NCBI GenBank assembly: GCA_017962375.1
Contig: JAGCVJ010000014.1
Span: 42,790 to 106,789, forward strand
Source of the DNA: Bacteroidales bacterium
Lineage (GTDB): Bacteria > Bacteroidota > Bacteroidia > Bacteroidales > UBA932
Length of the DNA stretch: 64,000 nucleotides
Reading direction: 5' to 3'
Shown: positions 1-21,640 of the stretch, piece after piece
Position numbering within the stretch: the stretch's first letter is position 1
How the letters are laid out: each line of letters opens with the position of its first letter
Program-made: the position numbers and the translations under genes
Notes under the pieces: generated by a model
The model's database searches: none
Told to the model about the DNA's origin: nothing
Seen by the model: only the letters and a program-made list of their open reading frames with translations

Positions 1-1870
1 TCTGAGGATTGGCAGCCCAAGTCTTCCCTCGGTCCTCAAAGCTTGCCATTTCCATAGGATCAGGACTGTATGGTCCCGGGATAGCCTCGCTGCTTCCCAT
101 CGTTGATGCATACAGCGGATATGCCACCCAAAGGCAGGTGTACATGCTGTACTGGTACATGTATGTATAATTGCGGTCTCCGTCTGCAAAGAAGGTGCTT
201 GTGAAGTAGTCTGAGCCTGTTTGAGATGCCGGAAGCTCAAGCCAACCGTTGATTGCCTGGCTTCCACCTTCTCCAGGTTCCTGGCTTACTGCAAGTTCTA
301 CAGAAGATGCTCCTGTATAATTAAGCGTAATGGTGCCGGTCCTTGAATTGGCGCCCGCTGCCTGTGCCGCTACATTAAACGTTATGTTATTGCCGCTTAC
401 TGCAACATTGGTTATCCAGGAAGCATTTGAAGTTGCTGTCAGAGTTACTCCCGATACCGGATTTGTAATCGTATAGCTTGCTGTCTGCGAACCGCCGGCC
501 TTACCTACCACTACAGGGTTGGAGGAGGTGATGCTGATGGCAGGGCCTGTCGGGCCAGATCCCTCCGCGATATACAGAGCCACAGGCTTCTGGCTGGAAG
601 TGTAGCAGCAGAATCGCGGGCTGCTCTGATTGTACTGGAGGGTTCTTGTTGTGGCATTGCCGCAGGCAATCGTAGCCACTCCGCTGCTGATGGAAATGTT
701 CCAGTTATAAGCATCTGCCTGCTCTATGCTGGTATTGCCACTATCCCAGGCCAGATAATTGCCGTAATTGACATCGCCGGATTTATCGTTCTGGATAGTC
801 CAGGAACTTCCATTCTTCTTTAACTTGACAGGAAGCACAGTACTTGTATTGTCCAACACGATAGTATTGCCTGTCTTGGTGATATTTTCACTAGTATGGA
901 TTGTTCCGCTCAAGCCCCCCATGGCTTTATCGAATCCGGAAGCGGCGATGATATAAGTTCCTTCAACCAGGCCGGACTGATTCTGTACCAGAGTATAGGT
1001 TACCGACGTGGAAACCGGAGTTGCATAGCCGCTCATGTTCATTCCGAATCTCGTCATCTTGCCGATCGAGAAGCTCAGAGTTCCTGAGAAGGCGCTTTCA
1101 GGCTTGGTATATGTGTTCTGGTCCGTTGAAACCACCACGCTTGAGAAACCAGCATTCTCTACCGGCATCGCTGTGAAATAAACAGGGAAAGTTCCGTCAG
1201 AAGGAACAACGGCATCGTCATAATTCAACGTTATCTTCTTGCCTCCGTTGGCATAAGTTCCAGCATCGTCGCCAGAAACCACATAATAACCGGTGACTAT
1301 CTTGTCGAATGTAACCTCAACTCTCTTGATTTTCTCGCCCGGAACAAGGCCTTTCAACGTCATCTTGTTAACGGTAATGATTCTCTGCATCATGAACTGC
1401 AGCGAGTTAAGAGCCGTAGCGGATGTTATTTCATCGGTTATCATTCCATCTGCATCCGGGTCATAGGAAGACTCTCCAGGGCTCTGAGTATCCTGAATCT
1501 TTATGTTTCCCTTGTTGCTGAATTCCTTGGCAAACCTTGCCGAATAAACATATTCGTCAGCCTGTACAGTAGCAAACTCCACTGTAAGGTCGATTCTTTT
1601 CATATCGGCGCTATAGTCAATTTCGGTAATGGTTCCCAAAGTCCCGTTCTCATAAATCCTGAAGTATTCGTCATCGCCTTCAGACCAAACATATGAAGCT
1701 TTGTCGTCTCCTTCAACCAATGACGTTTTGGTGTCTGCACCCTTGGTAAAAGAAACCTTGACAGTCCTCTTGTAAACCTCCGGCTGAGGTTCAGACTTGT
1801 CCTTTGCGCATCCCAGCAGCATCGCTGAGACAGCTGCTATCAAACCTATTTTGCAAAATATTCTTTTCAT
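1..1870 (-). CDS. Surface lipoprotein A, 3-prime end cut by window edge: pilin-like N-domain, shared mid module, BACON-like Ig domain, then start of a DNA/RNA non-specific endonuclease-like domain
   Basis: Hand translation from the ATG at 1868-1870 gives MKRIFCKIGLIAAVSAMLLGCAKDKSEP (lipobox LLGC). The frame stays open to position 1, so there is no stop and the ORF is absent from the track. Mid module ends RTLQYNQSSPRFCCYTSSQKPVALYIAEGSG. BACON-like stretch: GGSQTASYTITNPVSGVTLTATSNASWITNVAVSGNNITFNV..RTGTITLNY. The last residues, INGWLELPA..DRNYTYMYQYSMYTCLWVAYPL, resemble the N-terminal part of Endonuclease_NS lipoproteins. Confidence 0.6.
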   Translation of the reverse strand, partial: MKRIFCKIGLIAAVSAMLLGCAKDKSEPQPEVYKRTVKVSFTKGADTKTSLVEGDDKASYVWSEGDDEYFRIYENGTLGTITEIDYSADMKRIDLTVEFATVQADEYVYSARFAKEFSNKGNIKIQDTQSPGESSYDPDADGMITDEITSATALNSLQFMMQRIITVNKMTLKGLVPGEKIKRVEVTFDKIVTGYYVVSGDDAGTYANGGKKITLNYDDAVVPSDGTFPVYFTAMPVENAGFSSVVVSTDQNTYTKPESAFSGTLSFSIGKMTRFGMNMSGYATPVSTSVTYTLVQNQSGLVEGTYIIAASGFDKAMGGLSGTIHTSENITKTGNTIVLDNTSTVLPVKLKKNGSSWTIQNDKSGDVNYGNYLAWDSGNTSIEQADAYNWNISISSGVATIACGNATTRTLQYNQSSPRFCCYTSSQKPVALYIAEGSGPTGPAISITSSNPVVVGKAGGSQTASYTITNPVSGVTLTATSNASWITNVAVSGNNITFNVAAQAAGANSRTGTITLNYTGASSVELAVSQEPGEGGSQAINGWLELPASQTGSDYFTSTFFADGDRNYTYMYQYSMYTCLWVAYPLYASTMGSSEAIPGPYSPDPMEMASFEDRGKTWAANPQ

Positions 1871-1880
1871 GGCAGACATT

Positions 1881-2003
1881 TTAAAAATCACCTTCATCAT
1901 CGTAATCGTCGTCCGGAATAGTATTAGTACTCTGGGCAATGCAATTTTCTGTGCAAACGGCAAAGACCCTGCACTTTGGAACGGAGTATTTCTCCCGCTC
2001 CAT
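1881..2003 (-). CDS. Small acidic ORF A-prime (40 aa), 10 nt upstream of lipoprotein A
   Basis: Hand translation: MEREKYSVPKCRVFAVCTENCIAQSTNTIPDDDYDDEGDF. Shares the Y-x-x-P-x-C-[KR]-V-[YF] core and an acidic aromatic C-terminus with the other cassette ORFs. No signal peptide. Confidence 0.5.
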   Translation of the reverse strand: MEREKYSVPKCRVFAVCTENCIAQSTNTIPDDDYDDEGDF

Positions 2004-2137
2004 TTTGTTAAGGCAAATTAATTTCATCAATTAAAAAATTCTTTTTCCGACCCCAATCACTCAAAATCTGGCCCCGCAAAGTGATGCAAGTTAACAAAAA
2101 ATTCTTTTGGTTCTTTCTTTTCTCAGCCCCAGAAACA

Positions 2138-2171
2138 AAGAAGTCCGGAACCTGATTGTTTCGGACTTCTT
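2138..2171 (-). terminator. Hairpin downstream of lipoprotein B
   Basis: AAGAAGTCCG, a 14-nt loop, then CGGACTTCTT. On the minus strand it is followed by TGTTTCT, a weak U-tract. Confidence 0.45.
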
Positions 2172-2193
2172 GCATCACGACAAAAATCGTGTT

Positions 2194-4029
2194 TTATTTA
2201 GGAGCGCCAGCTCCAGCCTGGGCAATATACAGAAGAACTTCCTCTGTATTCTGCCAAACTCCGTCTACCATATTATAGCAGTAGAACAACTGCATATAGC
2301 CGCTTCTGCCAGAGCTTGAAGTATTCTGAGGAAGAGTAATAGTAAGTGTTCCCGTATTTCCAGATACTGAGTTGCTGGTAGTAAGAGGAATATTATAAGT
2401 AGAAACAGGACCCGACTGCGGCTGGATCTCTCCGTCAGCAGCTGGATACTTGATCTCGTAAGTAACGGTATAGGTACCGCCTGCTGCAGGCAGATACATT
2501 GTGTTGCCTACATAAACCATCGGCTCATATCCTGAAGGAGTGTTGACTCCTGAGGTGAAACGGAATTCAGGAACCGGAACAATTAGCGGATCACCTTCGC
2601 CAGTGCCTTCAAGTTTGTAGATTGCCAACGCTTCTGAAGCCAAGAAGGCATTGTCCATAAAGAATTCTTTATTATTATGATGATAACTCAGATACTTAAA
2701 TCGGCTCGCAGTATTATACGGGGTCATAAAGGCTTCGCCGTTTTCTTCCAGATGAACTTCCCAGCTAATGCCCTTCTCAGTCTCAGTAGAAGAACAGTTA
2801 TACAAATAAGTCCACTGGCTATAGTTGGAGCTAGGAGAAGAAGTTATCAAGGCGCCAATATACTTGTTGGCAAACTCCCCATTCTTGCACTCGAGCATAA
2901 CTGTATTCTTGCCGCTTCCCTTCTTCAGGGTGAATACCTGAACATCATCGCCAGGATTCTCGATAGTGGCCTTGTCTGAACTCTTAACGATATCAGCCTC
3001 TTTTCTCCAAGGGTAAGACCACATTTCTGTTGCCATTGCCTTGTCGTAAACGGTTGACGCAATCACGAACTCAGAGCCTGCGGTAAGCTCAGAATAATCG
3101 GTGACAAGCTTATACTGCAGAGGCTCTGGAGTGATGCCGCTCATGTTGAGATTGAAGGATGCAACCTGTCCCATCTTGAAATTGCCCTTTCCAGAAGGGA
3201 ATGTAACTTCCTTGGTGAAAACTCCTGCATCGGTCTTAACCTTTACAGTAAGTGTCTTGCCTTCCAGGTTTACAGGAAGAACTGAGAACCAGAACACCTT
3301 GCTGGCGTTGCTCTCTGCAGAAAGCTTGGAAGGATTGAGAGTCAGATACTTGTTCTGCTCAAATCCACCGGTGTAATACTCGTTTTCAGGATACATGGAG
3401 TTTCCTGTCAGGTACTCGGTAGAAGAAAGCTCAATGCTCTTGATGGTAACATCCTCAGGGAAGTTCTTGAGCATGAATTTTCCGTATGCTGCAATGTGGG
3501 AGAACTTGAGAGTTATCTTCTCAGGCATTGCGTTGGCAACAATAGCATGGTCAAGCGATGCAAACAGAATATGCGCTGCCTCATCGACAGATGTCATAGT
3601 AGGAGTCTGCTCCGAAGGAACTGCAAATCCCAATCCCCATCCGCCGTTATTTCCTGTGAAAGCGGTAGCAGGACTGACAGCCTGAAGCCAAAGCTCTGTG
3701 TCATCCTGTGGAAGATTGCTGAACTGAGCGTCAAAAGAAGCGGTTTTGCCGTCTCCTGAAGGAATGACGGTTGCCTCGTCAGACCAGTTTACGTTCAAGC
3801 TGAAGATAACCTTAACTTTCTGGTCTGCAGACCATACGGTTGGATAACCCTCAGATGTCTTGTCGCCGAAGTAAGTCTTTGTAGAAGGCTCCTGGGTCTG
3901 GGCGTTGAAGCTGATTTTAACAGCCTGCCTTTCCTGCTCTTTTGCAAGAGGAGAACTATCCTTGCTGCAGCTGATGAATGAAGTTGCAACTACTGCAACT
4001 ACTGCGAATAAACTGAAATACTTTCTCAT
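2194..4029 (-). CDS. Modular surface lipoprotein B: pilin-like N-domain, mid module, Ig/BACON-like C-terminus
   Basis: ORF track, 611 aa. Lipobox FISC followed by SKDSS. N-domain is paralogous to C, D and E (FSHIAAYGKFMLKNFPE, SNASKVFWFSV, FPSGKGNF). Mid module ends ALAIYKLEGTGEG. Confidence 0.85.
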   Translation of the reverse strand: MRKYFSLFAVVAVVATSFISCSKDSSPLAKEQERQAVKISFNAQTQEPSTKTYFGDKTSEGYPTVWSADQKVKVIFSLNVNWSDEATVIPSGDGKTASFDAQFSNLPQDDTELWLQAVSPATAFTGNNGGWGLGFAVPSEQTPTMTSVDEAAHILFASLDHAIVANAMPEKITLKFSHIAAYGKFMLKNFPEDVTIKSIELSSTEYLTGNSMYPENEYYTGGFEQNKYLTLNPSKLSAESNASKVFWFSVLPVNLEGKTLTVKVKTDAGVFTKEVTFPSGKGNFKMGQVASFNLNMSGITPEPLQYKLVTDYSELTAGSEFVIASTVYDKAMATEMWSYPWRKEADIVKSSDKATIENPGDDVQVFTLKKGSGKNTVMLECKNGEFANKYIGALITSSPSSNYSQWTYLYNCSSTETEKGISWEVHLEENGEAFMTPYNTASRFKYLSYHHNNKEFFMDNAFLASEALAIYKLEGTGEGDPLIVPVPEFRFTSGVNTPSGYEPMVYVGNTMYLPAAGGTYTVTYEIKYPAADGEIQPQSGPVSTYNIPLTTSNSVSGNTGTLTITLPQNTSSSGRSGYMQLFYCYNMVDGVWQNTEEVLLYIAQAGAGAPK

Positions 4030-4036
4030 TTTAATT

Positions 4037-4042
4037 TCCTCC
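4037..4042 (-). promoter_or_regulatory. Shine-Dalgarno-like GGAGGA, 7 nt before the ATG of lipoprotein B
   Basis: Minus strand reads CTTTAAAATCAGAGGAGGAAATTAAAATG. The stop of the small ORF lies 8 nt upstream of the GGAGGA. Confidence 0.5.
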
Positions 4043-4049
4043 TCTGATT

Positions 4050-4187
4050 TTAAAGATCACCCCAGTCCTCTTCTGGTGAAGGGTCAACCTCGTCGCCTGA
4101 GCTCATTGTGGCGATAGTGCCCTCTAATTTAACGGAATACACTTTGCAAAAAGGCTTAGCATATTCCTCTCTCTTGTGTGTTATCAT
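4050..4187 (-). CDS. Small acidic ORF B-prime (45 aa)
   Basis: MITHKREEYAKPFCKVYSVKLEGTIATMSSGDEVDPSPEEDWGDL. This is the 3-prime part of track ORF 4050..4286. The internal ATG at 4187 is preferred because of homology with D-prime and E-prime, and because the promoter-like box lies downstream of the longer start. Confidence 0.6.
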   Translation of the reverse strand: MITHKREEYAKPFCKVYSVKLEGTIATMSSGDEVDPSPEEDWGDL

Positions 4188-4255
4188 AATTGTTATACGT
4201 ATAATAATATATTTTTCAACTAGTATTCTTCGCAGAAAATCGCGAAAAAGCGGCG

Positions 4256-4264
4256 CAAAGTTTA
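4256..4264 (-). promoter_or_regulatory. Imperfect Bacteroidetes -7-like box (TAAACTTTG) upstream of B-prime
   Basis: Minus strand CTAAACTTTGCGCCGCTTTTTCG. The context matches the box upstream of D-prime (GCTAACTTGCGCCGCTTTTTTCG). Confidence 0.4.
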
Positions 4265-4272
4265 GAATAAAA

Positions 4273-4310
4273 GTCCAAAAAAGCAAGAGCTCGGCGCAAT
4301 ACCGAGCTCT
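4273..4310 (-). terminator. Intrinsic terminator of lipoprotein C
   Basis: AGAGCTCGG, a 7-nt loop, then CCGAGCTCT. Followed on the minus strand by TGCTTTTTTGG. Lies 32 nt after the stop codon. Confidence 0.75.
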
Positions 4311-4341
4311 ATTCCATTTAGAAATCTCAAAAAGAGGTAAG

Positions 4342-5664
4342 TTAGTTCTCGTAGGTTACATCGATATTGTAAGCCTTAACTCCACTGTAAATGTTAGTAA
4401 CAATTATTGTTAAAACTTTTCCTGTTTCTACTGTCGTTGAACTAACAGTCACATCAGGCGTACCCCAAAGTGATCCGCTTCCTACAGCAGTGTCACCTAC
4501 CTTCAAGGTTATTAAGCCATCCGTATCATCGTCAACTCCGCCCAATTTGATAGATAGACTCTTAATTTTTGCAGATCTCTCAAGCGTCGTGGTAAATGTT
4601 ATTGAGCCGGCAGCCCAATGCTCATCGCCAATAATGCTGAAATCAGTCTCCTGATCATAATCAGGGTTCTGAGTAGTGGTAATAGTCCAAGTATTTCCCT
4701 GGCTATCATTACCCGTAACTGTAGCTGCATTAATCTTGGTGCGACCGGTTCCGCTGCCAAATTGAATCGTTGCTGTCTTTTCAACAAGAGGCATTTCGAT
4801 AGTGAATGAAGCAACCCTTCCGGCCTGGAAATTACCTTTTTCTGCAGGGAAAGTGATGGTCTTAACATAATCCCCTACATTGGTGTGTACAGTAACTTTC
4901 AGGTTCTTGCCCTGCAGATCAACAGGCTTAACAGCAAACCAGAAAACTTTGCTTGCATTGCTCTCGGCAGATATCGCTGAGACATTAAGGCTAATAGTCT
5001 TAGAAGCGGTTTTATCTGCATAAGTTCCAGTTGCAGGATAGAAATAAACACTTCCTGCAATATTCTCGTCTGCCTCAAGGTCAATGCCAGAGATTGTTAC
5101 ATCCTCAGGGAAATCTTTGAGTGTAAATCTTCCGTAAGCCGCAATGTGAGAGAAAGAAAGAGATACATTATCAGGGAAAGTAGTAAATGTTGCAGACTTG
5201 GCGGCCATAATGTGAGCAGCTTCATCTACAGAGCTCATGGTCGGAGTCTGAGTTGCAGGAAATACAACTTCAACACGACTAGATGCAGCTTCCCAGGAAC
5301 TAGCGGCTACAGCTGGGCTGAGAGCATAGAACACATAGTTTCCACTGCCATCATCTGTGACCTCAGCATTGAAAGTAGCAGTCTTGCCGTCTGCAGAAGG
5401 AGTTACATCTGCCTGAACGGCATTGGCATAGTTAAGAGCAACGCTAACCTTCTGGGTTGAAGTCCAAATAGTTGGATAACCTGACGAAGTCTTGTCACCG
5501 AATTGAGTCTTAGTAGCTGGGTTAGAAGATTTAGCAATGAAGGTTACCTTTTTGGCTATAGAATCTGAAAGATTCTCCACATCTTCATTTTTGCTGCAAC
5601 TTGCCACAGTCAATCCAGCAACGGCTGCAAGGCATAAAAAACTAAAAAACTTGTTCATTTTCAT
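4342..5664 (-). CDS. Modular surface lipoprotein C: pilin-like N-domain plus a short C-terminal beta-rich module, no mid module
   Basis: ORF track, 440 aa. Lipobox VASC followed by SKNEDVEN. N-domain close to D (SVDEAAHIMAAKSATF, LKVTVHT, TITFPAEKGNFQAG). The GGAGGA position favours the second ATG at 5658. Confidence 0.85.
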   Translation of the reverse strand: MKMNKFFSFLCLAAVAGLTVASCSKNEDVENLSDSIAKKVTFIAKSSNPATKTQFGDKTSSGYPTIWTSTQKVSVALNYANAVQADVTPSADGKTATFNAEVTDDGSGNYVFYALSPAVAASSWEAASSRVEVVFPATQTPTMSSVDEAAHIMAAKSATFTTFPDNVSLSFSHIAAYGRFTLKDFPEDVTISGIDLEADENIAGSVYFYPATGTYADKTASKTISLNVSAISAESNASKVFWFAVKPVDLQGKNLKVTVHTNVGDYVKTITFPAEKGNFQAGRVASFTIEMPLVEKTATIQFGSGTGRTKINAATVTGNDSQGNTWTITTTQNPDYDQETDFSIIGDEHWAAGSITFTTTLERSAKIKSLSIKLGGVDDDTDGLITLKVGDTAVGSGSLWGTPDVTVSSTTVETGKVLTIIVTNIYSGVKAYNIDVTYEN

Positions 5665-5670
5665 TCCTCC
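5665..5670 (-). promoter_or_regulatory. Shine-Dalgarno-like GGAGGA before lipoprotein C
   Basis: Minus strand TTTAAAATTATGGAGGAATGAAAATGAAC. The spacing fits the second ATG. Confidence 0.45.
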
Positions 5671-5676
5671 ATAATT

Positions 5677-5733
5677 TTAAAGATCATCCCAGTCTTCTTC
5701 TGGTGAAGGGTCAACTTCGTCGCCAGAGCTCAT
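5677..5733 (-). pseudogene. Truncated small ORF C-prime: only the conserved 18-codon tail remains (MSSGDEVDPSPEEDWDDL)
   Basis: The tail is near-identical to B-prime, D-prime and E-prime. The upstream in-frame sequence (..DSSLTLCHFSASVA) has lost the EEY..P.C.VYS half. It may still be translated from its own ATG. Confidence 0.35.
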
Positions 5734-5757
5734 AGCAACACTGGCGGAAAAGTGACA

Positions 5758-5765
5758 CAAAGTTA
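5758..5765 (-). promoter_or_regulatory. Exact TAnnTTTG -7 box (TAACTTTG), 24 nt upstream of the C-prime ATG
   Basis: Minus strand TTTAACTTTGTGTCACTTTTCCGCC. Confidence 0.5.
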
Positions 5766-5800
5766 AAGAAGAGTCAACTAAAATTGCAAATCACAGTAAA

Positions 5801-5831
5801 ACAAAAAACGGGCAGGATTTTGTCCTGCCCG
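5801..5831 (-). terminator. Intrinsic terminator of lipoprotein D
   Basis: CGGGCAGGA, a 5-nt loop, then TCCTGCCCG. Followed on the minus strand by TTTTTTGTTTT. Confidence 0.8.
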
Positions 5832-5856
5832 CCCTAAAAGTACTATTCGAAAAAAA

Positions 5857-7956
5857 TTATAATGCAAATGATGCGCTCTTAAACTCAAAGTATCTGTTAT
5901 TATTGCCATTTACATGCACATTGTAGGTAATTTTGTAATAACAGTTGCTCCAGTCTTGTCCGCTAGGTTTTGTGATTGTTACAGATCCGTTTGCGCTGAA
6001 AGAAGGAGTTGCAGTGTAAACTGGATTTGAGAAGTCTGCGTTCTTTGATACAACAACAGTCATGGAATTTACCGTAATCTTGCTAGCAGCGCCATGAGAA
6101 ATTACAATAGAGCTGAAATCTTGCTCAAAAGCTGTTGTACTGAAAATTGTCCTGTCTACATCATCTAGCTGTTTGCCACCAATTCTCCACGGATTTTCTG
6201 TAGTGTTACCCATAACTTTCCAAGAGATATCTCCCTGAGTTATATTTGATTCTGTAGCGTAGCCATTGTCGCCACCAGTTACGGAACCGTCAAGAGTATA
6301 ACCGGAAACGAATGTTGCTGAAATTTCAACATCTGATGTTCCAACAGTGAAGGTTGCAACAGCAGTGTTGCCGCTAACTGTTGCACCAGTTACATACCAT
6401 GAGGAGAATGCGGAACCGGAAGCTGCAGTTGCAGTCAGAGTAACAGTTTTGCCTTCCTGAACCTTAGTGCCAGAAGCTATCTCGTCTCCATCAACGGTAA
6501 CAACGAAGGAGCCTCCAGTCAGTGGCTGGGTGTAGGTAATGGTATGTTTAACTTCGGCTACCAATGGATCACCGGAACCGGTGCCTTCAAGCTTGTAGAT
6601 GGCAACATCCTGCTGACCTGAAGCATAGCAAGCAAAAAGTTTCGCACCATTGTTGAATCTCAGAATGTTGCTTGAATACTGCTTGGCGGATAACTCAGCT
6701 ACACCATCACTGCCAAGGATTACGCCGAATGAAGTATTGTCACCTTTTGTGCTAAAGGTCTTCAAATAATTGCCCCCATTAGCAGAACCAATATAATAGT
6801 CCTCAACAAGGATACCTCCGTTGTTGCCTTTGAATGCAACGGTATTTGTTATCGTGCCTGCCTCAAGGAGGAATGTCTGAACGGCATCACCAGGGTTGAC
6901 AACAGTGTTTGTACCCTTGGTTATAGCAGCGGCAGCTCTGTTATTACCGTTGTCGGTAGTGCCAAGAGCATAATCTGCTTCATTTGCTACAATGATAACC
7001 TCAGAATTAGCGGTAAGCTCGTCATAGCTGGTAACAAGTGTATAAATCTTGTCAGCAGCTGGGGTTATTCCATTAAAGTCGATGTTGAAGGCTGCAACCT
7101 TTCCAGCCTGGAAATTGCCCTTGCCGGAAGGGAAAGTGATGGTCTTTACGTAATCGCCTCCATCGGTATGAACGGTGACTTTCAGGTTCTTGCCCTGCAG
7201 GTCAACTGGCTTGATTCCAAACCAGAACACCTTGCTTGCATTGCTCTCGGCAGAAATCGCTGAGGAGCTAATGCTAACGGTCTTTGCTGCAGAATTGTCT
7301 GCATACTCGCCGGTCTCAGGATAGAAGTAAACTCTTCCAACAATGTTCTCGTCTGCGGTAAGATCAACGCCTGTGATAGCAACTGTCTCAGGGAAGTTCT
7401 TGAGCATGAACTTTCCGTATGCTGCAATATGAGAGAAAGTCAAAGAAACTGAAGACTCTTCTGAAGGGAACTCAGTAAATGTAGCGGACTTGGCTGCCAT
7501 AATGTGAGCTTTCTCGTCAACAGAACCCATTGTAGGTGCCTGATTTGCCGGGAAGTCTACCTGAACGCTCTGATAACTAGCGTTCCAGGAAATAGCGGCA
7601 ACGGCTGGACTGAGAGCGTAGAAAACATAATTACCGCTTTCGTCATCATTAACTGTTACGGTGAAAGTAGCGGTCTTGCCATCTGCAGAAGGGGTTACGG
7701 TAGCCTGCTTTGCATTGGCAAAGTTAAGAGCTATGCTAACCTTCTGGTTGCTTGTCCACACTGTTGGATAACCAGCGGAAGTCTTATCACCAAAAATGGT
7801 CTTGGTGTCTGGATTAGCAGATTTAGCGTTGAAGCTAACCTTCTTTACAGGGGATGTAGGAAGATTCTCTTCTATTTCATTTTTGCTGCAGCTGGCCAAT
7901 GTCATGGCAGCAATGGCAGCAAGGCATAAATAATTAAAGAACTTTTTCATTTTCAT
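5857..7956 (-). CDS. Modular surface lipoprotein D: pilin-like N-domain, mid module, InlB-B-repeat-like module, C-terminal beta-rich module
   Basis: ORF track, 699 aa. Lipobox LASC followed by SKNEIEEN. Mid module ends VAIYKLEGTGSG. Repeat-like segment: HTITYTQPLTGGSF..GSAFSSWYVTGATVSGN. The second ATG at 7950 is favoured by the GGAGGA position. Confidence 0.85.
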   Translation of the reverse strand: MKMKKFFNYLCLAAIAAMTLASCSKNEIEENLPTSPVKKVSFNAKSANPDTKTIFGDKTSAGYPTVWTSNQKVSIALNFANAKQATVTPSADGKTATFTVTVNDDESGNYVFYALSPAVAAISWNASYQSVQVDFPANQAPTMGSVDEKAHIMAAKSATFTEFPSEESSVSLTFSHIAAYGKFMLKNFPETVAITGVDLTADENIVGRVYFYPETGEYADNSAAKTVSISSSAISAESNASKVFWFGIKPVDLQGKNLKVTVHTDGGDYVKTITFPSGKGNFQAGKVAAFNIDFNGITPAADKIYTLVTSYDELTANSEVIIVANEADYALGTTDNGNNRAAAAITKGTNTVVNPGDAVQTFLLEAGTITNTVAFKGNNGGILVEDYYIGSANGGNYLKTFSTKGDNTSFGVILGSDGVAELSAKQYSSNILRFNNGAKLFACYASGQQDVAIYKLEGTGSGDPLVAEVKHTITYTQPLTGGSFVVTVDGDEIASGTKVQEGKTVTLTATAASGSAFSSWYVTGATVSGNTAVATFTVGTSDVEISATFVSGYTLDGSVTGGDNGYATESNITQGDISWKVMGNTTENPWRIGGKQLDDVDRTIFSTTAFEQDFSSIVISHGAASKITVNSMTVVVSKNADFSNPVYTATPSFSANGSVTITKPSGQDWSNCYYKITYNVHVNGNNNRYFEFKSASFAL

Positions 7957-7962
7957 TCCTCC
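7957..7962 (-). promoter_or_regulatory. Shine-Dalgarno-like GGAGGA before lipoprotein D
   Basis: Minus strand TTTAAAATTATGGAGGAATGAAAATGAAAAAG. Confidence 0.45.
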
Positions 7963-7968
7963 ATAATT

Positions 7969-8112
7969 TTAAAGATCACCCCAGTCTTCTTCTGGTGAAG
8001 GGTCAACTTCATCGCCAGAGCTTAAAGTAGCAATGGTGCTCTCGAAATTTACGGAATACACTCTGCAAACTGGAGCAGTGTACTCCTTTTCCGTGTTAAA
8101 ATTGAACTTCAT
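7969..8112 (-). CDS. Small acidic ORF D-prime (47 aa)
   Basis: Hand translation: MKFNFNTEKEYTAPVCRVYSVNFESTIATLSSGDEVDPSPEEDWGDL. Confidence 0.6.
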   Translation of the reverse strand: MKFNFNTEKEYTAPVCRVYSVNFESTIATLSSGDEVDPSPEEDWGDL

Positions 8113-8163
8113 TTTTATAAATATGTATTATTATTTTTGTTCGATTAGGTCGAAAAAAGCGGC

Positions 8164-8171
8164 GCAAGTTA
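8164..8171 (-). promoter_or_regulatory. Imperfect -7-like box (TAACTTGC) upstream of D-prime
   Basis: Minus strand GCTAACTTGCGCCGCTTTTTTCG. Context conserved with the B-prime box. Confidence 0.35.
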
Positions 8172-8264
8172 GCATAATAAATTTGACACTTCCAAATTTT
8201 TTGGCGGAAAAACTCAAAAAATACCACTCAGCGGTGCATTACAGGCCTGTTTTGTAACATCTAT

Positions 8265-8302
8265 GACAAAAACAAAAGCGGGCAGGAATATCCCGCCCGC
8301 TT
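8265..8302 (-). terminator. Intrinsic terminator of lipoprotein E
   Basis: AAGCGGGCAGG, a short loop, then CCCGCCCGCTT (one mismatch). Followed on the minus strand by TTTTGTTTTTGTC. Confidence 0.75.
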
Positions 8303-8324
8303 AAATGCTAATACGTTCCAGAAT

Positions 8325-11246
8325 CTATTCGGCATTAACTCCCCAAACTACAAAACGTTTCCCTGTTGTTGCTGTAAGAGTCAATTGCTTATCCTGAGTC
8401 ATACCAGAAAGCGATATCTCAAAATAGTAATTTGCAGGTGCTCCACTCAAAGTAAATGGAGTATTATTACTGATTCCAGCATCACTAGTCAAAGACAAAA
8501 CAGATGGTGTTGCATCAACACCAGACAAAGTAATCTTGACTGTTTCGTTATTCCAAGCAGCGATATGAACATGAAGTTTGGTTGTTCCAGAAGGAACAGT
8601 AATTATCATTGCGCCAGCCTTACTGCTTGTTCCACACTTTATTGCATTATATTCGGTATTTGAAATAACAACTTTTGCTGCAGTTGCACTAGTTCCACCG
8701 CTAGTGCTTAGTGTTACATTACTTGTATTAATATCAGAATAATCCCCACCTGCCTCTGAGTCAAACCTTGCTGCTATAGAAACATCTGACGTTCCCATAG
8801 TGAAAGTAGCAGTTTCAGTGTTTCCGCTTACGGTAGCTCCAGAAACTGTCCAGCTAGTAAAGTTGTAGCCAGAAGCTGGAGTTGCAGTAAGGGTAACTAC
8901 TGTACCTTCCAAAACTTCAGTTCCTGAAGATATGGCAGAACCATTAACCTTTACGGTGAATGAGCCTCCAGCTGATGGCTGAGTAAATGTAACAGCATGT
9001 GCAGTAGGAGTATGGGCTTGGGTAATGGTAATGCCATCGGTAGACCAAACCTTTATCTGGTCATTGTTGTTATACCATGCTATAGTTCCCACTGCAGTAA
9101 TAACATCTCCTTCGGCAAGTCCGGAAGGAACTCCTGCGGCAGCATAAACCACATATGTATTGCTTCCATTCTTGACAGAAATGTTCTTATCGTTAATTCC
9201 GGTCACCTCAAGGTCATTGACCTGAACATATGCACTCTGATATGTACTGAGATTCCCAACAAGCTGAGAGAGTGTGAATACCTGAGGAGCTACCGTTGCC
9301 TGCGAACCGGTAAAGTTGGCAGTCAGGGCTGTGATTTCAGCACAATTGTGGTACATCGTAGCTGTTACGGTTATTGGACCTGACAATGTCTGACCCTGTA
9401 GCAAACCATGATCTGTTACAAAAACCAATGTAGAACCTGTAGCGTCTTTGATTACTGCATTCTTTGTATCAGGAACAAATGAAATTACTGCATTGGTAAG
9501 AGTTCCGGAATAATCACCTGCAGTAGCTGCCAGAGCGTTGAGTTGGGCAACTGTGGTGAAATCTGAACCAGGAGTGCTTACTTCACACTCTTTCTCTGCG
9601 ATATCACTCATGTTATAACCTGGAGCTCCGGCAAATGCCTTGACTGTGCAAGTTTCAGTGATTGTAAACGGCTCAGTATATTCCTGAGTAGTTCCGATAG
9701 GATTACCGTCATCATCGATACCAGGAGTAGTTCCATCAGTGGTATAGCCGATTCTTGCACCTGATGCGGAGCAAGTGATGGTAACGGTATTCGTTGAAGA
9801 ATTGAACGATATTTCTGGAGTTGGACACTTAGGATCATCAATCAGAGATGAGCCTTCTCCACTTCCTTCGAGTACATATACAACAACTTCCTTCTGACCA
9901 GAAGCATAGCAAGAGAAGATTGGAGGATTATTGCCGCTATTGTATTTAATAATATTACGAGTATTTTCCCCGCTAGCTTTCAATACGGTATAACCATCCT
10001 CAATTGTTACGCTGAAAGAAGCATTTCCATCCTTGGTGTCCTGACTCTTAAGATAATTTGAACCAGAACTTGCAGCATAAATATACTTATCTGTCTGATC
10101 ACCGTTTACGCACTTGAATGCAACTGTGTTGGATTCAGTACCGGCCTCAAGAGTGAATATCTGAACAGCATCGCCAGGATTGGTAATAGTTTTAAGATCT
10201 TCGCTCTTATCAACATCAGTATGAGCTCTATTATTACCATTCTGAGTAGTGCTCATTGCTTTTGCATAATCCTTAGCAACAATTATTGCCTTTGCACCAG
10301 GAAGCAATTGCTTCTTGTCAGTGAGGATTTTATAAACCTTGTCTTCTCCAGGAGTGATGCCTGCCATGCTGATTGTAAATGTAGCAACTTTTCCAGCCAG
10401 GAAGTTACCCTTACCGGTAGGGAATGTGATGGTCTTTGCATATACTCCAGCATCTGTATGAACAGCAACCTTAAGAGTCTTACCCTCCAGATTTACAGGC
10501 TTAAATGAAAACCAGAAATCGGTGGTGTTATTCTTATCTATCTCAAGGTCTGAAACATCAAGATTAACGCTGTTGCCAGCAGAATTTACTTCATAAGACC
10601 CGTCTGAAGGTTTGAAACGGAATCTTCCTGCAACCTGCTCCTGTGCGGTAAGCTCAATGCTGTTGATTGTAACAGTTTCAGGCAGGTTCCTGAACTGGAA
10701 CTTACCATAAGCAGCAATGTGAGAGAAAATCAGTGTAACAGGAGTAGTCTCCTCTGGGAACTCAGAGAATGTAGCTGACTTGGCCGCCATTATATGAGCC
10801 TTTTCATCAACGGAATTCAGGGTTGGTTTCTGTGATGCTGGGAAGTCAACCTGAACGTTGCTGTTATCTGCATTTGCATTCCAGTTTATCACTGAAGCAG
10901 CAGGGCTTAAGGCATAGAAAACATAACTATCCTGTCCGTCATCTTCAATGGTAGCATTGAAAGTAGCGGTTTTACCATCTGAGCTAGGAGTTACCTCTGC
11001 CTGCTTAGCAGAACCGAAGTTAAGGGAAATGCTAACCTTCTCGTTTTCTGTCCAAACGGTAGGATAACCAGCATCTGTCTTGTCGCCGAAAGCGGTCTTG
11101 GTGGAAGGATTGGAAGCCTTTGCACTGAAAGAGATCTTCTTTACAGATTTTTCAGGAAGGTTCTCAACAGTCTCGTTTTTGCTGCAGCTTGCCAGTGTCA
11201 GACCAGCTATGGCAGCAAGGCATAAGTAATTAAAGAACTTTTTCAT
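8325..11246 (-). CDS. Modular surface lipoprotein E, the largest: pilin-like N-domain, mid module, CHB_HEX_C-like segment, OB-fold-like (DUF5689-type) module, InlB-B-repeat-like module, C-terminal module
   Basis: ORF track, 973 aa. Lipobox LASC followed by SKNETVEN. Segments: ARIGYTTDGTTPG..TVKAFA; DFTTVAQLNAL..VIKDATGS..IKVWSTDGITI; HAVTFTQPSAGGSF..GYNFTSWTVSGATVSGN. Confidence 0.85.
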   Translation of the reverse strand: MKKFFNYLCLAAIAGLTLASCSKNETVENLPEKSVKKISFSAKASNPSTKTAFGDKTDAGYPTVWTENEKVSISLNFGSAKQAEVTPSSDGKTATFNATIEDDGQDSYVFYALSPAASVINWNANADNSNVQVDFPASQKPTLNSVDEKAHIMAAKSATFSEFPEETTPVTLIFSHIAAYGKFQFRNLPETVTINSIELTAQEQVAGRFRFKPSDGSYEVNSAGNSVNLDVSDLEIDKNNTTDFWFSFKPVNLEGKTLKVAVHTDAGVYAKTITFPTGKGNFLAGKVATFTISMAGITPGEDKVYKILTDKKQLLPGAKAIIVAKDYAKAMSTTQNGNNRAHTDVDKSEDLKTITNPGDAVQIFTLEAGTESNTVAFKCVNGDQTDKYIYAASSGSNYLKSQDTKDGNASFSVTIEDGYTVLKASGENTRNIIKYNSGNNPPIFSCYASGQKEVVVYVLEGSGEGSSLIDDPKCPTPEISFNSSTNTVTITCSASGARIGYTTDGTTPGIDDDGNPIGTTQEYTEPFTITETCTVKAFAGAPGYNMSDIAEKECEVSTPGSDFTTVAQLNALAATAGDYSGTLTNAVISFVPDTKNAVIKDATGSTLVFVTDHGLLQGQTLSGPITVTATMYHNCAEITALTANFTGSQATVAPQVFTLSQLVGNLSTYQSAYVQVNDLEVTGINDKNISVKNGSNTYVVYAAAGVPSGLAEGDVITAVGTIAWYNNNDQIKVWSTDGITITQAHTPTAHAVTFTQPSAGGSFTVKVNGSAISSGTEVLEGTVVTLTATPASGYNFTSWTVSGATVSGNTETATFTMGTSDVSIAARFDSEAGGDYSDINTSNVTLSTSGGTSATAAKVVISNTEYNAIKCGTSSKAGAMIITVPSGTTKLHVHIAAWNNETVKITLSGVDATPSVLSLTSDAGISNNTPFTLSGAPANYYFEISLSGMTQDKQLTLTATTGKRFVVWGVNAE

Positions 11247-11252
11247 TTTAAT

Positions 11253-11258
11253 TCCTCC
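11253..11258 (-). promoter_or_regulatory. Shine-Dalgarno-like GGAGGA, 6 nt before the ATG of lipoprotein E
   Basis: Minus strand TTTAAAATTTACAGGAGGAATTAAAATGAAAAAG. Confidence 0.5.
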
Positions 11259-11266
11259 TGTAAATT

Positions 11267-11410
11267 TTAAAGATCACCCCAGTCTTCCTCTGGTGAAGGG
11301 TCTACCTCGTCGCCAGAACTCATAGTAGTAATGGCGCCTTCCAAATTGATAGAGTATACTTTGCACTGTGGTGCAAGATACTCTTCTGATTTGATGAACT
11401 TGAGTTGCAT
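11267..11410 (-). CDS. Small acidic ORF E-prime (47 aa)
   Basis: Hand translation: MQLKFIKSEEYLAPQCKVYSINLEGAITTMSSGDEVDPSPEEDWGDL. Starts only 35 nt after the stop of lipoprotein F, with no hairpin between them. Confidence 0.6.
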   Translation of the reverse strand: MQLKFIKSEEYLAPQCKVYSINLEGAITTMSSGDEVDPSPEEDWGDL

Positions 11411-11445
11411 TGTGTCTGTTATTTAATTTTTAGCTAAAAATATAA

Positions 11446-13611
11446 TTATTCAAATGTAACCTTGATGCCCTTAATACGTCTGTGTCCTGTAGTTCCGGTT
11501 ACTGTAAATGTAACAGCGCTAGAAGATCCAGTCCAAACACCAGTAGAATTATTATAAGTTACAACATCAGTAGAAATAGCATTTGATCCGTCACCAGAAC
11601 CGAAGGTAAGCTCAATCATGCTTATCTTCTTGCTAGAGTCGTTAGCGGTAACAGTGAAGTAGCCGCCACCGTAAACTCTTACAGCAGTTCCTGTAGTGTA
11701 GTATTTAGGAGTGTTGCTGTTGGTACCCTTGTCAAATGTGACAGTTGCATTGGTGCCTGTTACGGTCTTTACTTCCTGTGCATTTGAATAACCTGTAGAC
11801 AAGTCAAAGGTCTCGGTGAGAACGCTTGAAGACTCAAGGTTAGCTACAATGTTGATGTCAGCAGTACCTACCTTGAAGGTTACAACATGGGAAGTGGTGC
11901 TGCTGAGATTTACTGCATTGGTAATGCTCCAGGTGGTGAAGTTATAACCGCCAGTCAATACTATCTCGGCCTTTACTTCAGTGCCTTCAATATACTTGGC
12001 GCCTGAAGTGATTTCAGTTCCGCCAACAGTTACTTTGATAGAACCGCCGGCTTCCGGCTGGGTAAAGTTGATGGCGTGCTCTGTTGGAGTGTGCTCGGTA
12101 ATGGTTAAGTCATCAGCCTTCCAAACCTTGAGCTCTTTGAATACAGTATCGTCCTTCTTAAACTGTGTAACGGTTCCGATTACTGTAATCTTATCACCTA
12201 CAACACAGGTTGGAGTGCCATAGTTGCAGTATACGATGAAACCGGTATACTCTCCATCTGTAACGGTAACGTTCTTTCCATCAACAGCAGTAACTTCAAC
12301 ATTTTCAAGCTTAGCGTATGTGTTCTGATAAGTATTATACTGCCAGCCCATATTGAAGATAGTCAATACCTGAGGATCAACTACAGCGCCTTCACCAGTG
12401 AATGTGGCATCCATGGTGGTGATCTCAGAATAGAGGCTCTGGTAATTCTGGAGGGTAACTGTGATGTTGCCGGTATAGGTCTGGCCCTGCTTCAAGCCGT
12501 GGCCGGACTTGTAGTACATAACTGAACCTGTTCCGTCTGTAATGATGGCAACAGTAGTATTAGGAACAAATGAAACAACTGCATTGGTGAGCTTACCTGT
12601 CTTGGATGTTGGGGTTTCGCCAACTTCATCAGCAAGTTCGTTGAGCTCTGCAACAGTTGTGAAGTCGAAAGTTTCGAGAGTCTTGTCGTAAGCGAAAGCT
12701 ATCTTCTTCATCTTGCCAGCCTTGAACTCATAGTCCTTGTCTGCAGAGATAACCTTTTCCTGAGCTCCGTTGGATGCGGTAACGGTGATGGTGAAGTCAT
12801 CGCCTTCGTTAACAACGAAAGGCTTAACTGCAAGATAGAAAGTGGCCTTTTCGCCTGCTGCTATTGCCTCGCCGCTGTTTACAACCAGGTTAGCTACGTT
12901 GCTTACATAGGTTTCGCCGCTTGGGGTGAAGCCAGGATTGTAAGGATCTGTGAAATCGATGTAGTAGGTACCTACGATATCAACTCCGTCGGCTGTGATG
13001 GAAATGCCGGAAACTGTAATAGCTTCTCCTTTCTTTGTAGCGTTCTCAACCTCAACCTCAATAAGAGAGGAAAGATGCCTCATCTGGATAACAGGCCTTT
13101 CGTCGCCAGAAATTTTAGATGCTACACCTGCGATAGGATAGTTGTTGCCGGAAATATGAGCAGTGCTGTTGTTGCCCTTCTGAGTCTGGTTGCCCTTTGC
13201 GGTGGATCCTACAGTCACATAACCTGCAGATGTGTTGGCAGGAGTGGTGATCTGCTTTGTGTAAGGATAGAAAGCGTACCAGTTGTAGGTCTTGGTTTCA
13301 TCAAAGCTGGCATCAAGGGTTCCTGTGAAGGTGGCGGTTGCGCCTGCAGCTGATGTCTTGAACTGGCCGTCGCTGACATAAGCAGGAGTATCCTCGCCAG
13401 CAACATTGTGGAACAGGTTGATAGCGTCATTGGCAGCCCACAGCGTCTTCATGCCGTCATTGGTGGTCTTGGTGTTGACGCCGTTAAGAGTTACTGAGAA
13501 ATCGGTCTTCTCGATTTCCTTCATTCCGGTATCGTTCTTAGAACATCCGGTGAATGCAATGGCAGCTACTGCCAAAGCACTCAAAACGTAAGATTTGAAT
13601 TTCTTTGTCAT
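11446..13611 (-). CDS. Modular surface lipoprotein F: divergent pilin-like N-domain, OB-fold-like module, InlB-B-repeat-like module, C-terminal module
   Basis: ORF track, 721 aa. Lipobox FTGC followed by SKNDTG. Segments: NTKTTNDGMKTLWAANDAINLF, YAFYPY, MRHLSSLIEVEV; FTTVAELNEL..AIITDGTGS..LKVWKADDLTI; HAINFTQPEAGGS..GYNFTTWSI; C-terminus PKYYTTGTAVRVYGGG. Confidence 0.85.
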   Translation of the reverse strand: MTKKFKSYVLSALAVAAIAFTGCSKNDTGMKEIEKTDFSVTLNGVNTKTTNDGMKTLWAANDAINLFHNVAGEDTPAYVSDGQFKTSAAGATATFTGTLDASFDETKTYNWYAFYPYTKQITTPANTSAGYVTVGSTAKGNQTQKGNNSTAHISGNNYPIAGVASKISGDERPVIQMRHLSSLIEVEVENATKKGEAITVSGISITADGVDIVGTYYIDFTDPYNPGFTPSGETYVSNVANLVVNSGEAIAAGEKATFYLAVKPFVVNEGDDFTITVTASNGAQEKVISADKDYEFKAGKMKKIAFAYDKTLETFDFTTVAELNELADEVGETPTSKTGKLTNAVVSFVPNTTVAIITDGTGSVMYYKSGHGLKQGQTYTGNITVTLQNYQSLYSEITTMDATFTGEGAVVDPQVLTIFNMGWQYNTYQNTYAKLENVEVTAVDGKNVTVTDGEYTGFIVYCNYGTPTCVVGDKITVIGTVTQFKKDDTVFKELKVWKADDLTITEHTPTEHAINFTQPEAGGSIKVTVGGTEITSGAKYIEGTEVKAEIVLTGGYNFTTWSITNAVNLSSTTSHVVTFKVGTADINIVANLESSSVLTETFDLSTGYSNAQEVKTVTGTNATVTFDKGTNSNTPKYYTTGTAVRVYGGGYFTVTANDSSKKISMIELTFGSGDGSNAISTDVVTYNNSTGVWTGSSSAVTFTVTGTTGHRRIKGIKVTFE

Positions 13612-13622
13612 AACTGCTGATT

Positions 13623-13775
13623 TTAAGCATTCATAGGATCACCATCGTCTTCCCAGTCATCAATTGTGCCGTCTCCGCTGGCACAGATAATTCCCTCTGA
13701 CTCGAGGTCCAGGAATTCGATCTCAGGAGTCTCATAGAACTCCTTGATTCTCTGAACAGTAAAGTTTTTCTTCAT
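13623..13775 (-). CDS. Small acidic ORF F-prime (50 aa)
   Basis: Hand translation: MKKNFTVQRIKEFYETPEIEFLDLESEGIICASGDGTIDDWEDDGDPMNA. Stop lies 11 nt before the ATG of lipoprotein F. Confidence 0.5.
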   Translation of the reverse strand: MKKNFTVQRIKEFYETPEIEFLDLESEGIICASGDGTIDDWEDDGDPMNA

Positions 13776-13834
13776 AATATGTTAATGTTGTAATAATTCT
13801 ACTGCGCTCCGGGGGCAATACCCCATAGAGCATT

Positions 13835-13842
13835 CAAAGTTA
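13835..13842 (-). promoter_or_regulatory. Exact TAnnTTTG -7 box (TAACTTTG) upstream of F-prime, at the head of the array
   Basis: Minus strand TTCATAACTTTGAATGC, 59 nt upstream of the F-prime ATG. A short GGGG..CCCC hairpin lies in the leader. Confidence 0.5.
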
Positions 13843-14487: not shown

Positions 14488-14503
14488 CTGCGTTGGGTTT
14501 AGG

Positions 14504-15394: not shown

Positions 15395-15400
15395 TTGCTG

Positions 15401-17668: not shown

Positions 17669-17686
17669 TGTTGCAGACTATAGCCG

Positions 17687-21634: not shown

Positions 21635-21640
21635 AACAAG

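Follow-up and report, generated by a model that had tools for sequence, protein, structure and literature searches.

Small acidic proteins encoded directly upstream of pilin-fold lipoprotein genes in Bacteroidales

We analyzed a 64,000-nucleotide stretch of DNA (hereafter the window) from a rumen or gut Bacteroidales bacterium of the UBA932 lineage (contig JAGCVJ010000014.1, positions 42,790–106,789). Positions 1–13,800 of the window hold six tandem units on the minus strand, each made of a small open reading frame (ORF) followed by a lipoprotein gene. The small ORFs are, with near certainty, coding genes under purifying selection. Small ORF and lipoprotein gene very probably form an obligate module, in which the N-terminal domain (N-domain) of the lipoprotein has a type V pilin (FimA/Mfa) fold where tested. 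The small proteins constitute an undescribed and unannotated Bacteroidales family that is acidic and lacks a signal peptide. Our best overall reading, put forward tentatively, is that of a disordered protein of the cytoplasm that acts in trans to bind or escort the precursor of the lipoprotein.

Five of the six copies in the window are intact (45–50 amino acids), and one (copy B) is a decaying relic. A preliminary description of this DNA had pointed to a tail shared by copies B, C, D, and E, and had argued from its substitutions for purifying selection on a translated product and not on an RNA element. A search of the window finds the tail pattern exactly four times, whereas 100 shuffles yield it not once. 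As stated there, the four 54-nucleotide tails differ at nine codons, seven of them synonymously (AGC/AGT, TCT/TCA, GAC/GAT, GTT/GTA, and three times GAA/GAG) and two non-synonymously (ATG/TTA and GGT/GAT). With 20% of the tail sites being synonymous, the binomial probability of at least seven synonymous differences among nine is 2.9e-4 under neutrality. The N-terminal motif ascribed to the small ORFs is present in C, D, and E, with the correction that K-E instead of E-[EK] precedes the tyrosine in D; it is missing from B, which has no N-terminal half and whose homology to the other copies begins ∼12 nucleotides before its ATG, right after a promoter-consensus match. The more divergent copies A′ and F′ do possess the Y-x-x-P element and the acidic, aromatic ends attributed to them. 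A length below 60 amino acids had been given for all copies, which does not apply to C if the first TTG of its 78-amino acid ORF is taken as the start.

Related DNA was collected in two independent ways, with the lipoprotein N-domain alone and with the small-protein alignment. The N-domain search covered one genome per species and yielded 8 loci with a four-sequence alignment (A3), a six-sequence alignment (A2) being too divergent; the search of metagenomes with the small-protein alignment yielded 11 loci. From the window and related contigs, we assembled 16 distinct core-type sequences (38 aligned codons) and calculated the ratio of non-synonymous to synonymous divergence (dN/dS) according to Nei and Gojobori. 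Over these copies and relatives, dN/dS is 0.155 in the ORF frame (bootstrap 95% confidence interval 0.08–0.27; maximum 0.42 in 2000 resamples), compared with 1.10 and 3.98 in the +1 and +2 forward frames. The antisense frame that shares the third-codon positions of the ORF shows a value of 0.21, which this overlap would lead one to expect. Both parts of the small ORF are constrained (0.13 in the N-terminal half and 0.19 in the tail). The window paralogues C, D, and E alone gave a pooled value of 0.11, and the lipoprotein N-domains beside the same paralogues gave 0.17–0.33; the constraint on the small ORF is at least equal to that on the N-domain. Values in other subgroups are 0.04–0.14 for the F′ type (0.06–0.14 for F′ against its orthologues in loci L002 and L016) and 0.14–0.55 for loci L006–L008.

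Variable sites fall on codon positions 1, 2, and 3 in the numbers 16, 9, and 31. Parsimony on a neighbor-joining tree counted 88 synonymous and 65 non-synonymous events on 24.8 and 89.2 sites, respectively, which corresponds to an event ratio of 0.205 (P = 1e-21, with 22% of sites synonymous). The synonymous divergence among C, D, and E (dS about 0.9–1.2) indicates that these are old copies that were not recently homogenized. Intact ORFs were retained in all orthologous and related arrays, and only in copy B, the N-terminal half of which was already gone, was an ORF lost while nucleotides were kept. Selection on a translated product held in every check proposed in the preliminary description that could be run, by dN/dS as well as in the orthologous arrays.

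These results bear on the possibility that the ORFs are non-functional and look alike through gene conversion between tandem units, or because they are part of an RNA or 5′-untranslated element that serves the lipoprotein gene. Indeed, the units are tandem paralogues, nucleotide identity peaks over the stretch from the tail to the Shine–Dalgarno (SD)-like motif, and there is a weak hairpin with a few compensatory changes. However, the codon periodicity of the substitutions and the low dN/dS of the ORF frame speak against this possibility, as does a synonymous divergence of 0.8–1.2, at which the copies are not homogenized. In many species, and at amino acid identities as low as ∼25%, the ORF remains uninterrupted and its start and stop are conserved in position, and the tail DNA of B orthologues decays before an intact lipoprotein gene (see below). 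At the RNA level, no Rfam family reached its threshold (the best, L20_leader, scored 28 bits against a cutoff of 58.7 bits), and RNAalifold arrives at only a weak consensus fold (−11 kcal/mol, to which covariation contributes −0.21 kcal/mol). A known or conserved RNA element was rejected on these grounds, and the whole explanation, already largely refuted, is scarcely credible.

The family extends far beyond the window. A profile search of 1.84 billion representative proteins retrieved 71 clusters at E ≤ 1e-3, all but one of which are small proteins of 34–82 amino acids, and a second profile search of 5.8 billion proteins retrieved at least 129 clusters. Among 120 clusters listed, lengths are 37–107 amino acids, none has a Pfam domain, and the few named ones are called "hypothetical protein"; copy D is identical to one such "hypothetical protein" (P0001) of a Bacteroidales metagenome-assembled genome. 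A 339-amino acid secreted protein with four repeats resembling the strand motif (P0072) matched at a borderline E of 6.7e-4; its Pfam scan was uninformative, and we treated it as a chance match. Scans of the small ORFs with Pfam-A, NCBIfam, PHROGs, and PADLOC returned nothing better than E = 0.13 and nothing near a cutoff, and a sequence profile search of the PDB had a best E of 1.3. Since PADLOC and PHROGs gave no matches, an origin in a defense system or a phage was rejected. Full-text literature searches found no description of the small-ORF/lipoprotein module.

Across 67 aligned members, the family signature is Y-x-x-P-x-C-x-V…E-G-x-I, followed by an acidic linker of variable length and a [DE]-[WYF] tip. 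Tyr-11 and Pro-14 are invariant, Glu-24 is found in 64 of the 67, and Val-18, Ile-27, Cys-16, Gly-25, and an aromatic residue (Trp, Tyr, or Phe) at position 44 are strongly conserved. Positions 16–23 alternate between hydrophobic and polar residues, as in a β-strand. The acidic segment from Ser-30–Gly-33 to the aromatic residue differs in length among members, so does the spacing from Glu-24–Gly-25 to this residue, and 0–15 residues follow it. Of the 67 members, 63 have an aromatic residue among their last 12 positions, and the terminal residue itself differs (Leu, Phe, Ala, Trp, Tyr, Ile, or Asp). With medians of 49 amino acids, an isoelectric point of 4.2, and a net charge of −6, and without any hydrophobic stretch, the family bears out the earlier characterization of the products as acidic and devoid of a signal peptide. 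An AlphaFold model of the monomer is extended and has no secondary structure, and its predicted local distance difference test (pLDDT) score is 85 over residues 11–20. An extended model with locally confident residues is what a strand-addition motif would look like.

Three contigs (L006–L008) carry the same Bacteroidales-style module, with small proteins that are ∼80–90% identical to each other. They were binned in one study as Treponemataceae, Lachnospiraceae, and Firmicutes CAG:460, which is probably a case of mis-binning and not of cross-phylum transfer.

Every small ORF that could be inspected sits immediately in front of a lipoprotein gene. A family small ORF is located directly upstream in 8 of 8 loci retrieved by the lipoprotein N-domain alone. 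In the sequence gathered for this comparison, 42 of 48 N-domain genes have a small ORF 11–37 nucleotides upstream of the start of the N-domain match; the six without a match comprise two genes at a locus edge (L011 and L015), one just below the threshold (L006), two B-relic orthologues, and one divergent gene without a small ORF. Distant family members (P0033, P0038, P0055, P0066, P0141, P0167, and P0189) also lie directly upstream of lipoprotein genes. Many of the loci come from related strains, so that these counts are not independent; the paired loci span subfamilies with only about 25–35% identity. A fusion of the two genes by read-through or frameshifting was rejected, as the gaps (1, 9–15, and 18–20 nucleotides) keep no constant frame, and no fused small-protein/lipoprotein was found among the 129 database clusters. 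In locus L027 (3331–11423; also in L028), five small-ORF/lipoprotein pairs in both orientations are packed within 8 kb next to an AbiEi/AbiEii pair, and all five small ORFs match the family hidden Markov model (HMM).

A divergent pilin-fold lipoprotein gene without a small ORF is found in locus L002 (8165–9985). Its leader (TAACTTTG...CTTTTTCGCGA) is visibly similar to that of window unit C, and the stretch 8040–9985 is in effect a naturally occurring unit that lacks the small ORF.

Copy B illustrates the fate of a small ORF that has lost its N-terminal half. In loci L001 (∼8180–8260) and L017 (∼345–425), the relic has decayed to MSSGGEVDTSP* through two non-synonymous changes and an in-frame 21-nucleotide deletion, whereas the same TAA is kept and the 440-amino acid lipoprotein gene is intact. 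The tail therefore decays once the full small protein is gone, which argues that tail DNA is kept for this protein and not, after its loss, for the lipoprotein. Between L001 and the window, the N-domain is 98% identical whereas 11 of the 47 residues of the small ORF differ, and recombination between strains has re-paired small ORFs with lipoprotein genes. The small ORF at 8862–9017 of locus L003 is chimeric, with a core-type N-terminal half (MKFNFDTEKEYTAPVCKVYSI...) and an A′-type tail (...AQSPNSSDDGYDDNNDLGEI), which suggests that the two halves of the small protein are exchangeable modules.

All six lipoproteins of the window and the partners at other loci start with MKK...[hydrophobic]...C[SAQ]K, a signal peptide with a lipobox cysteine. 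In the 699- and 440-amino acid genes, the first ATG abuts a GGAGGA motif without a spacer. A second ATG, 6 nucleotides further on, gives starts (MKKFF... and MNKFF...) like those of the paralogues, so that the true starts are probably at 7950 and 5658. We modeled the N-domain of the 699-amino acid protein with AlphaFold2 (pLDDT 88, predicted template modeling score 0.85) and compared it with the PDB by Foldseek. The top 16 matches are all Bacteroidales adhesin or fimbrial proteins (E 1e-9 to 1e-4, probability 1.00, template modeling score 0.34–0.56) and include 3ufi, 4rdb, 3t2l, 4k4k, 4h40, 5nf4 (Mfa3), and 5dhm (Mfa4), the last two from Porphyromonas gingivalis. The Pfam fimbrillin models Mfa_like_1 and P_gingi_FimA did not match the window lipoproteins, and Mfa_like_1 was matched by only 2 of 23 aligned lipoprotein homologues (best E = 8.9e-9).

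After the first β-strand, the 699-amino acid lipoprotein and its paralogues contain a conserved motif, TKT.FGDKT..GYPT.W (window 7800–7870; mature residues ∼29–38). The TKT.FGDKT loop is highly conserved, contains lysine, and is poorly modeled (pLDDT ∼47). Type V pilins start out as lipoprotein precursors; after Sec export and lipidation, they reach the outer membrane and are cleaved behind an arginine that follows the first strand (PMC8512630). The position of the TKT.FGDKT loop is compatible with that of the type V pilin cleavage loop (PMC8512630).

The junction between the two genes raises the question of whether the small ORF works in cis. Its stop codon lies 1–20 nucleotides before the lipoprotein start or overlaps it (by 4 nucleotides at P0033), and it is TAA at 27 of 27 distinct junctions. 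In core-type units, identity between paralogues is highest (80–96%) from −79 to −19 relative to the lipoprotein ATG, and this peak covers the tail, the stop codon, and the GGAGGA motif. Each of the four core-type lipoprotein genes has a perfect GGAGGA 6–8 nucleotides ahead of its likely ATG, and that strand of the array contains no other copy. Among 41 other long ORFs of the window, at most 3 have GGAGG near an in-frame ATG, two of these ATGs being well inside the ORF, and the genome is otherwise devoid of SD motifs. Ribosomes of Bacteroidia are normally blind to SD sequences (PMC7797042, PMC9976891, PMC10798248), reportedly unless bS21 is missing (PMC7797042, PMC9976891). A conserved SD-like motif is odd in such a lineage and may tie the core-type lipoprotein genes to specialized translation. 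In addition, the final GAC TGG GGT GAT shows no synonymous change in 16 sequences where ∼6 are expected (P ≈ 0.003, chosen post hoc), indicating that some constraint at the nucleotide level coexists with that on the protein.

All of these features would suit a regulatory upstream ORF (uORF), the translation or nascent peptide of which controls translation of the lipoprotein, the free peptide having no function. Control might be exerted by coupling of termination and reinitiation, or by pausing or destabilization of the ribosome on the acidic, proline-containing tail before the stop codon. Tails rich in Asp, Glu, and Pro do resemble the sequences that cause "intrinsic ribosome destabilization" (bioRxiv 10.1101/2021.02.02.429294) and a translation-aborting uORF (PMC8092293), and relic B is still a short ORF leading to the same TAA, with 18 codons in the window and 11 codons in L001 and L017. 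Nevertheless, the peptide sequence of the relic is free to decay, selection acts on the whole peptide of intact copies, and the residues that are invariant across the family are N-terminal, 20–35 residues from the stop and at a variable distance from it. An arrest-peptide model therefore fits poorly, as known arrest peptides need a fixed geometry. GGAGGA is absent from the junctions of subgroups outside the core, the L002 gene at 8165 has a homologous leader without a uORF, and in minimum free energy folds of 17 sequences the AU-rich lipoprotein start region is not paired, and hence not sequestered, in a consistent way. We consider a cis-acting uORF rather unlikely, but it is the main rival of a role in trans, and roles in trans and in cis could coexist.

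Action of the product in trans, as a protein, is slightly favored in our judgment. It is supported by the constraint on the whole peptide, by the variable distance of the invariant residues from the stop, by the extended monomer model, by the decay of relic B beside an intact lipoprotein gene, and by the re-pairing between strains. If the small protein binds or escorts the lipoprotein precursor, as we tentatively propose, it would be a disordered, two-part binding peptide that stays in the cytoplasm. The first part would be the β-strand-forming segment Y-x-x-P-x-C-x-V-[YF]-x-[VIL]-x-x-E-G-x-I-[AC]-x-S, and the second the [DE]-[WYF] tip, joined to the strand segment through the variable acidic linker. 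The peptide might dock on the newly made precursor or on its handling machinery and escort or hold the precursor before Sec export, with the tight coupling of the two genes holding production near 1:1. That the small protein is specifically an escort or holdase of the precursor is more doubtful.

Several points weigh against such a role. The small protein and the mature lipoprotein reside in different compartments, so that any contact must precede export, and we know of no precedent for a 47-amino acid escort of a Sec-dependent lipoprotein. The strand motif does not resemble the lipoprotein's own first strand in sequence; mimicry of this strand was rejected after local alignment to the first 60 mature residues (33 pairs, 500 shuffles), which gave z values from −1.65 to +1.7. 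Some pilin-fold lipoprotein genes, namely the B orthologues and the gene at 8165–9985 of L002, have no intact small ORF, so that a partner in cis is not a universal requirement. Finally, the tight spacing between stop and start, together with the invariance of the last four codons, the TAA, and the GGAGGA of the core group, fits a role in cis equally well.

A trans-acting protein need not be a binding partner of the precursor. The product could be a small acidic regulator or mimic (similar to an anti-sigma factor or anti-adaptor, or imitating nucleic acid) that limits or reports the expression of the lipoprotein family. It is strongly acidic and predicted to be disordered, and the units are multi-copy and independently promoted. 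Cross-regulation of phase-variable surface genes is known in Bacteroides (UpxY/UpxZ), and one distant unit, located behind a candidate invertible promoter beside a serine recombinase, suggests that these surface genes may be phase-variable. In that locus (L025, 5121–6126; also in L026), the serine recombinase gene (Pfam Resolvase) ends 280 nucleotides upstream of the family member, and a 29-nucleotide inverted repeat (5711–5739 and 5876–5904; 90% complementary) brackets 136 nucleotides that look like an invertible promoter driving the small-ORF/lipoprotein unit. A search for invertible promoters in the window found only terminator hairpins upstream of the small ORFs. We regard such a regulator as improbable, since no regulator, sigma-factor, or DNA-binding gene is conserved nearby, the product is not similar to any known family, and two genes coupled so tightly and strictly 1:1 more typically encode physical partners.

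The small proteins also recall precursors of ribosomally synthesized and post-translationally modified peptides (RiPPs). Their Y-x-x-P-x-[CV]-x-V segment would then be a leader for a modifying enzyme and the acidic, Trp-containing tail the core peptide. Y-x-x-P followed by a hydrophobic residue and a hydrophobic strand is reminiscent of leaders bound by RiPP recognition elements (RREs) or PqqD, such as those of lasso peptides and PqqA, and the products are small, vary at the C terminus, occur as multiple paralogues, and frequently contain Cys and Trp. However, across more than 10 independent contexts the lipoprotein is the sole constant neighbor, and conserved neighbors of the maturase, RRE, peptidase, or transporter kind are lacking. 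Neither the window flank nor the surroundings of seven distant members yielded a RiPP modifying enzyme, RRE, or export/peptidase gene. A single radical SAM gene is present in the flank, 7 kb away, and has a Radical_SAM_C domain but no match to the SPASM domain, and Pfam, including its RiPP precursor models, returned no small-ORF match at E ≤ 1. A RiPP precursor is thus very improbable.

The features of the array are collected in Table 1. Terminator-like hairpins follow four of the lipoprotein genes, so that units D, B, C, and A′ look like separate transcription units; E begins only 35 nucleotides after the 721-amino acid lipoprotein gene. The Bacteroides promoter consensus has three full matches in the window against 1.25 expected, each a match to the consensus only. 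Most small-ORF/lipoprotein units have their own promoter-like motif and terminator, and the whole unit duplicates in tandem. The G+C content is 41–45% in the lipoprotein array (1–13800) and 52–55% in the flank (14000–22000), which holds housekeeping genes (DUF456, an OstA-like protein, a peptidyl-prolyl isomerase, and IMPDH). This shift could reflect a foreign origin or a compositional bias typical of variable surface-protein genes.

Table 1. Features of the small-ORF/lipoprotein array, in order of transcription
Feature	Position	Strand	Remarks
−7-box-like motif TAACTTTG	13835-13842	-	∼60 nucleotides upstream of the F′ start; consensus match only
Small ORF F′	13623-13775	-	50 aa, MKKNFTVQRIKEFYETPEIEFLDLESEGIICASGDGTIDDWEDDGDPMNA; divergent member; family HMM E=7.5e-17; stop 11 nucleotides before ATG of partner lipoprotein gene
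Lipoprotein gene, partner of F′	11446-13611	-	721 aa; pilin-like N-domain, N-domain HMM E=2.3e-92
Small ORF E	11267-11410	-	47 aa, core type, tail SSGDEVDPSPEEDWGDL
GGAGGA	11253-11258	-	before the 973-aa gene
Lipoprotein gene, partner of E	8325-11246	-	973 aa; pilin-like N-domain plus Fn3_assoc/CHB_HEX_C and InlB B-repeat domains
Intrinsic-terminator-like hairpin	8276-8302	-	after the 973-aa gene
Small ORF D	7969-8112	-	47 aa, core type
GGAGGA	7957-7962	-	before the 699-aa gene
Lipoprotein gene, partner of D	5857-7956	-	699 aa; modeled N-domain has type V pilin fold
Similar terminator-like hairpin	5805-5835	-	
Promoter-consensus match, Bacteroides type, TTTG-N21-TAACTTTG	5758-5790	-	full match, directly upstream of relic B
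Small ORF copy B	5677-5733	-	18-codon relic MSSGDEVDPSPEEDWDDL without N-terminal half
GGAGGA	5665-5670	-	before the 440-aa gene
Lipoprotein gene, partner of relic B	4342-5664	-	440 aa; intact in window, L001, and L017
Similar terminator-like hairpin	4286-4310	-	
Small ORF C	4050-4187	-	45 aa from its ATG, core type
GGAGGA	4037-4042	-	before the 611-aa gene
Lipoprotein gene, partner of C	2194-4029	-	611 aa
Similar terminator-like hairpin	2138-2171	-	
Small ORF A′	1881-2027	-	48 aa, or 40 aa from ATG at 2003; divergent; ends DDDYDDEGDF; matches P0013; stop 1 nucleotide before ATG of next lipoprotein gene
Sixth lipoprotein gene, partner of A′	1-1879	-	>626 aa, extends past left end of window; N-domain HMM E=1.1e-109

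Lipoproteins with a type V pilin fold are among the most expanded surface-protein families of gut, oral, and rumen Bacteroidia. To our knowledge, the model of type V pilin biogenesis, which comprises Sec export, lipidation, transport to the outer membrane, and protease-triggered strand exchange, has no cytoplasmic accessory factor. A conserved, selected small gene that shares one expression unit with many pilin-fold genes hints that a step is missing from what is known of how these proteins are produced or regulated. Conceivably, if improbably, the small protein is a new kind of miniature, substrate-dedicated pre-export factor, a disordered peptide of ∼47 residues that is produced at a fixed ratio to each type V pilin-fold lipoprotein and that would attach to the precursor by β-strand addition and contact the export machinery or the basic n-region of the signal peptide through the acidic-aromatic tip. 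Bacteroidia would then have a gene-by-gene means to keep fast-folding pilin modules competent for export or to time their export. No Pfam or NCBIfam model covers this widespread family; its genes are called in some assemblies, but few are named, and then only as "hypothetical protein." As the module consists of only two genes, is self-contained, and occurs in many copies, its function is a directly testable question.

Compared with known systems, the small protein shares features with several. A likeness to the C-terminal tip of SSB, suggested in the preliminary description, holds for composition, as both have, at or near the C terminus, an acidic run with an aromatic or hydrophobic residue at its end. 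It does not extend to homology: the small protein of 45–50 residues has no oligonucleotide/oligosaccharide-binding (OB) fold, and neither its tip sequence nor the distance from the aromatic residue to the end is fixed. RiPP leaders bound by RREs or PqqD (the YxxP leaders of lasso peptides, PqqA) combine Y-x-x-P, an alternating hydrophobic strand, and a small variable C-terminal region. In contrast to these, the small ORF is always paired with a lipoprotein gene, and no modifying enzyme or RRE was present in the contexts inspected. With leader and arrest peptides of the SecM, TnaC, and MgtL types and with destabilizing uORFs, it has in common a short ORF 5′ of a gene, selection on the peptide, and a segment rich in Asp, Glu, and Pro before the stop. 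It differs from them in that its conserved residues are far from the stop at a variable distance, no RNA switch is evident, and the peptide of relic B decays while the gene behind it persists.

Class I type III secretion chaperones and the flagellar proteins FliS and FliT are acidic cytoplasmic proteins encoded beside one cognate exported protein, with which they are co-expressed, and they have no enzymatic domain. The small protein is comparable in its acidity, in the position of its gene next to that of the putative substrate, in its presumed co-expression with the latter, in lacking an enzymatic domain, and in its predicted cytoplasmic location. Whereas type III chaperones are folded dimers of ∼120–140 amino acids that serve type III export, the small protein has ∼47 amino acids, is predicted to be disordered, and neighbors a Sec-dependent protein. 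Pfam and PDB profile searches detected no similarity to such chaperones in sequence or structure.

On the side of the partner gene, the comparison leads to the type V pilins and fimbrillin-like lipoproteins (FimA/Mfa). No small upstream ORF is reported for fim or mfa operons in the pilus literature searched. Unlike type V pilins, the window partners have no match to the Pfam fimbrillin models and carry large, variable C-terminal domains after the pilin-like module. They share with these pilins the lipoprotein signal peptide with its cysteine, the two-lobed β-sandwich of the N-domain, to which the best fold matches belong, and a conserved Lys-containing loop at the place where the pilins are cut (PMC8512630).

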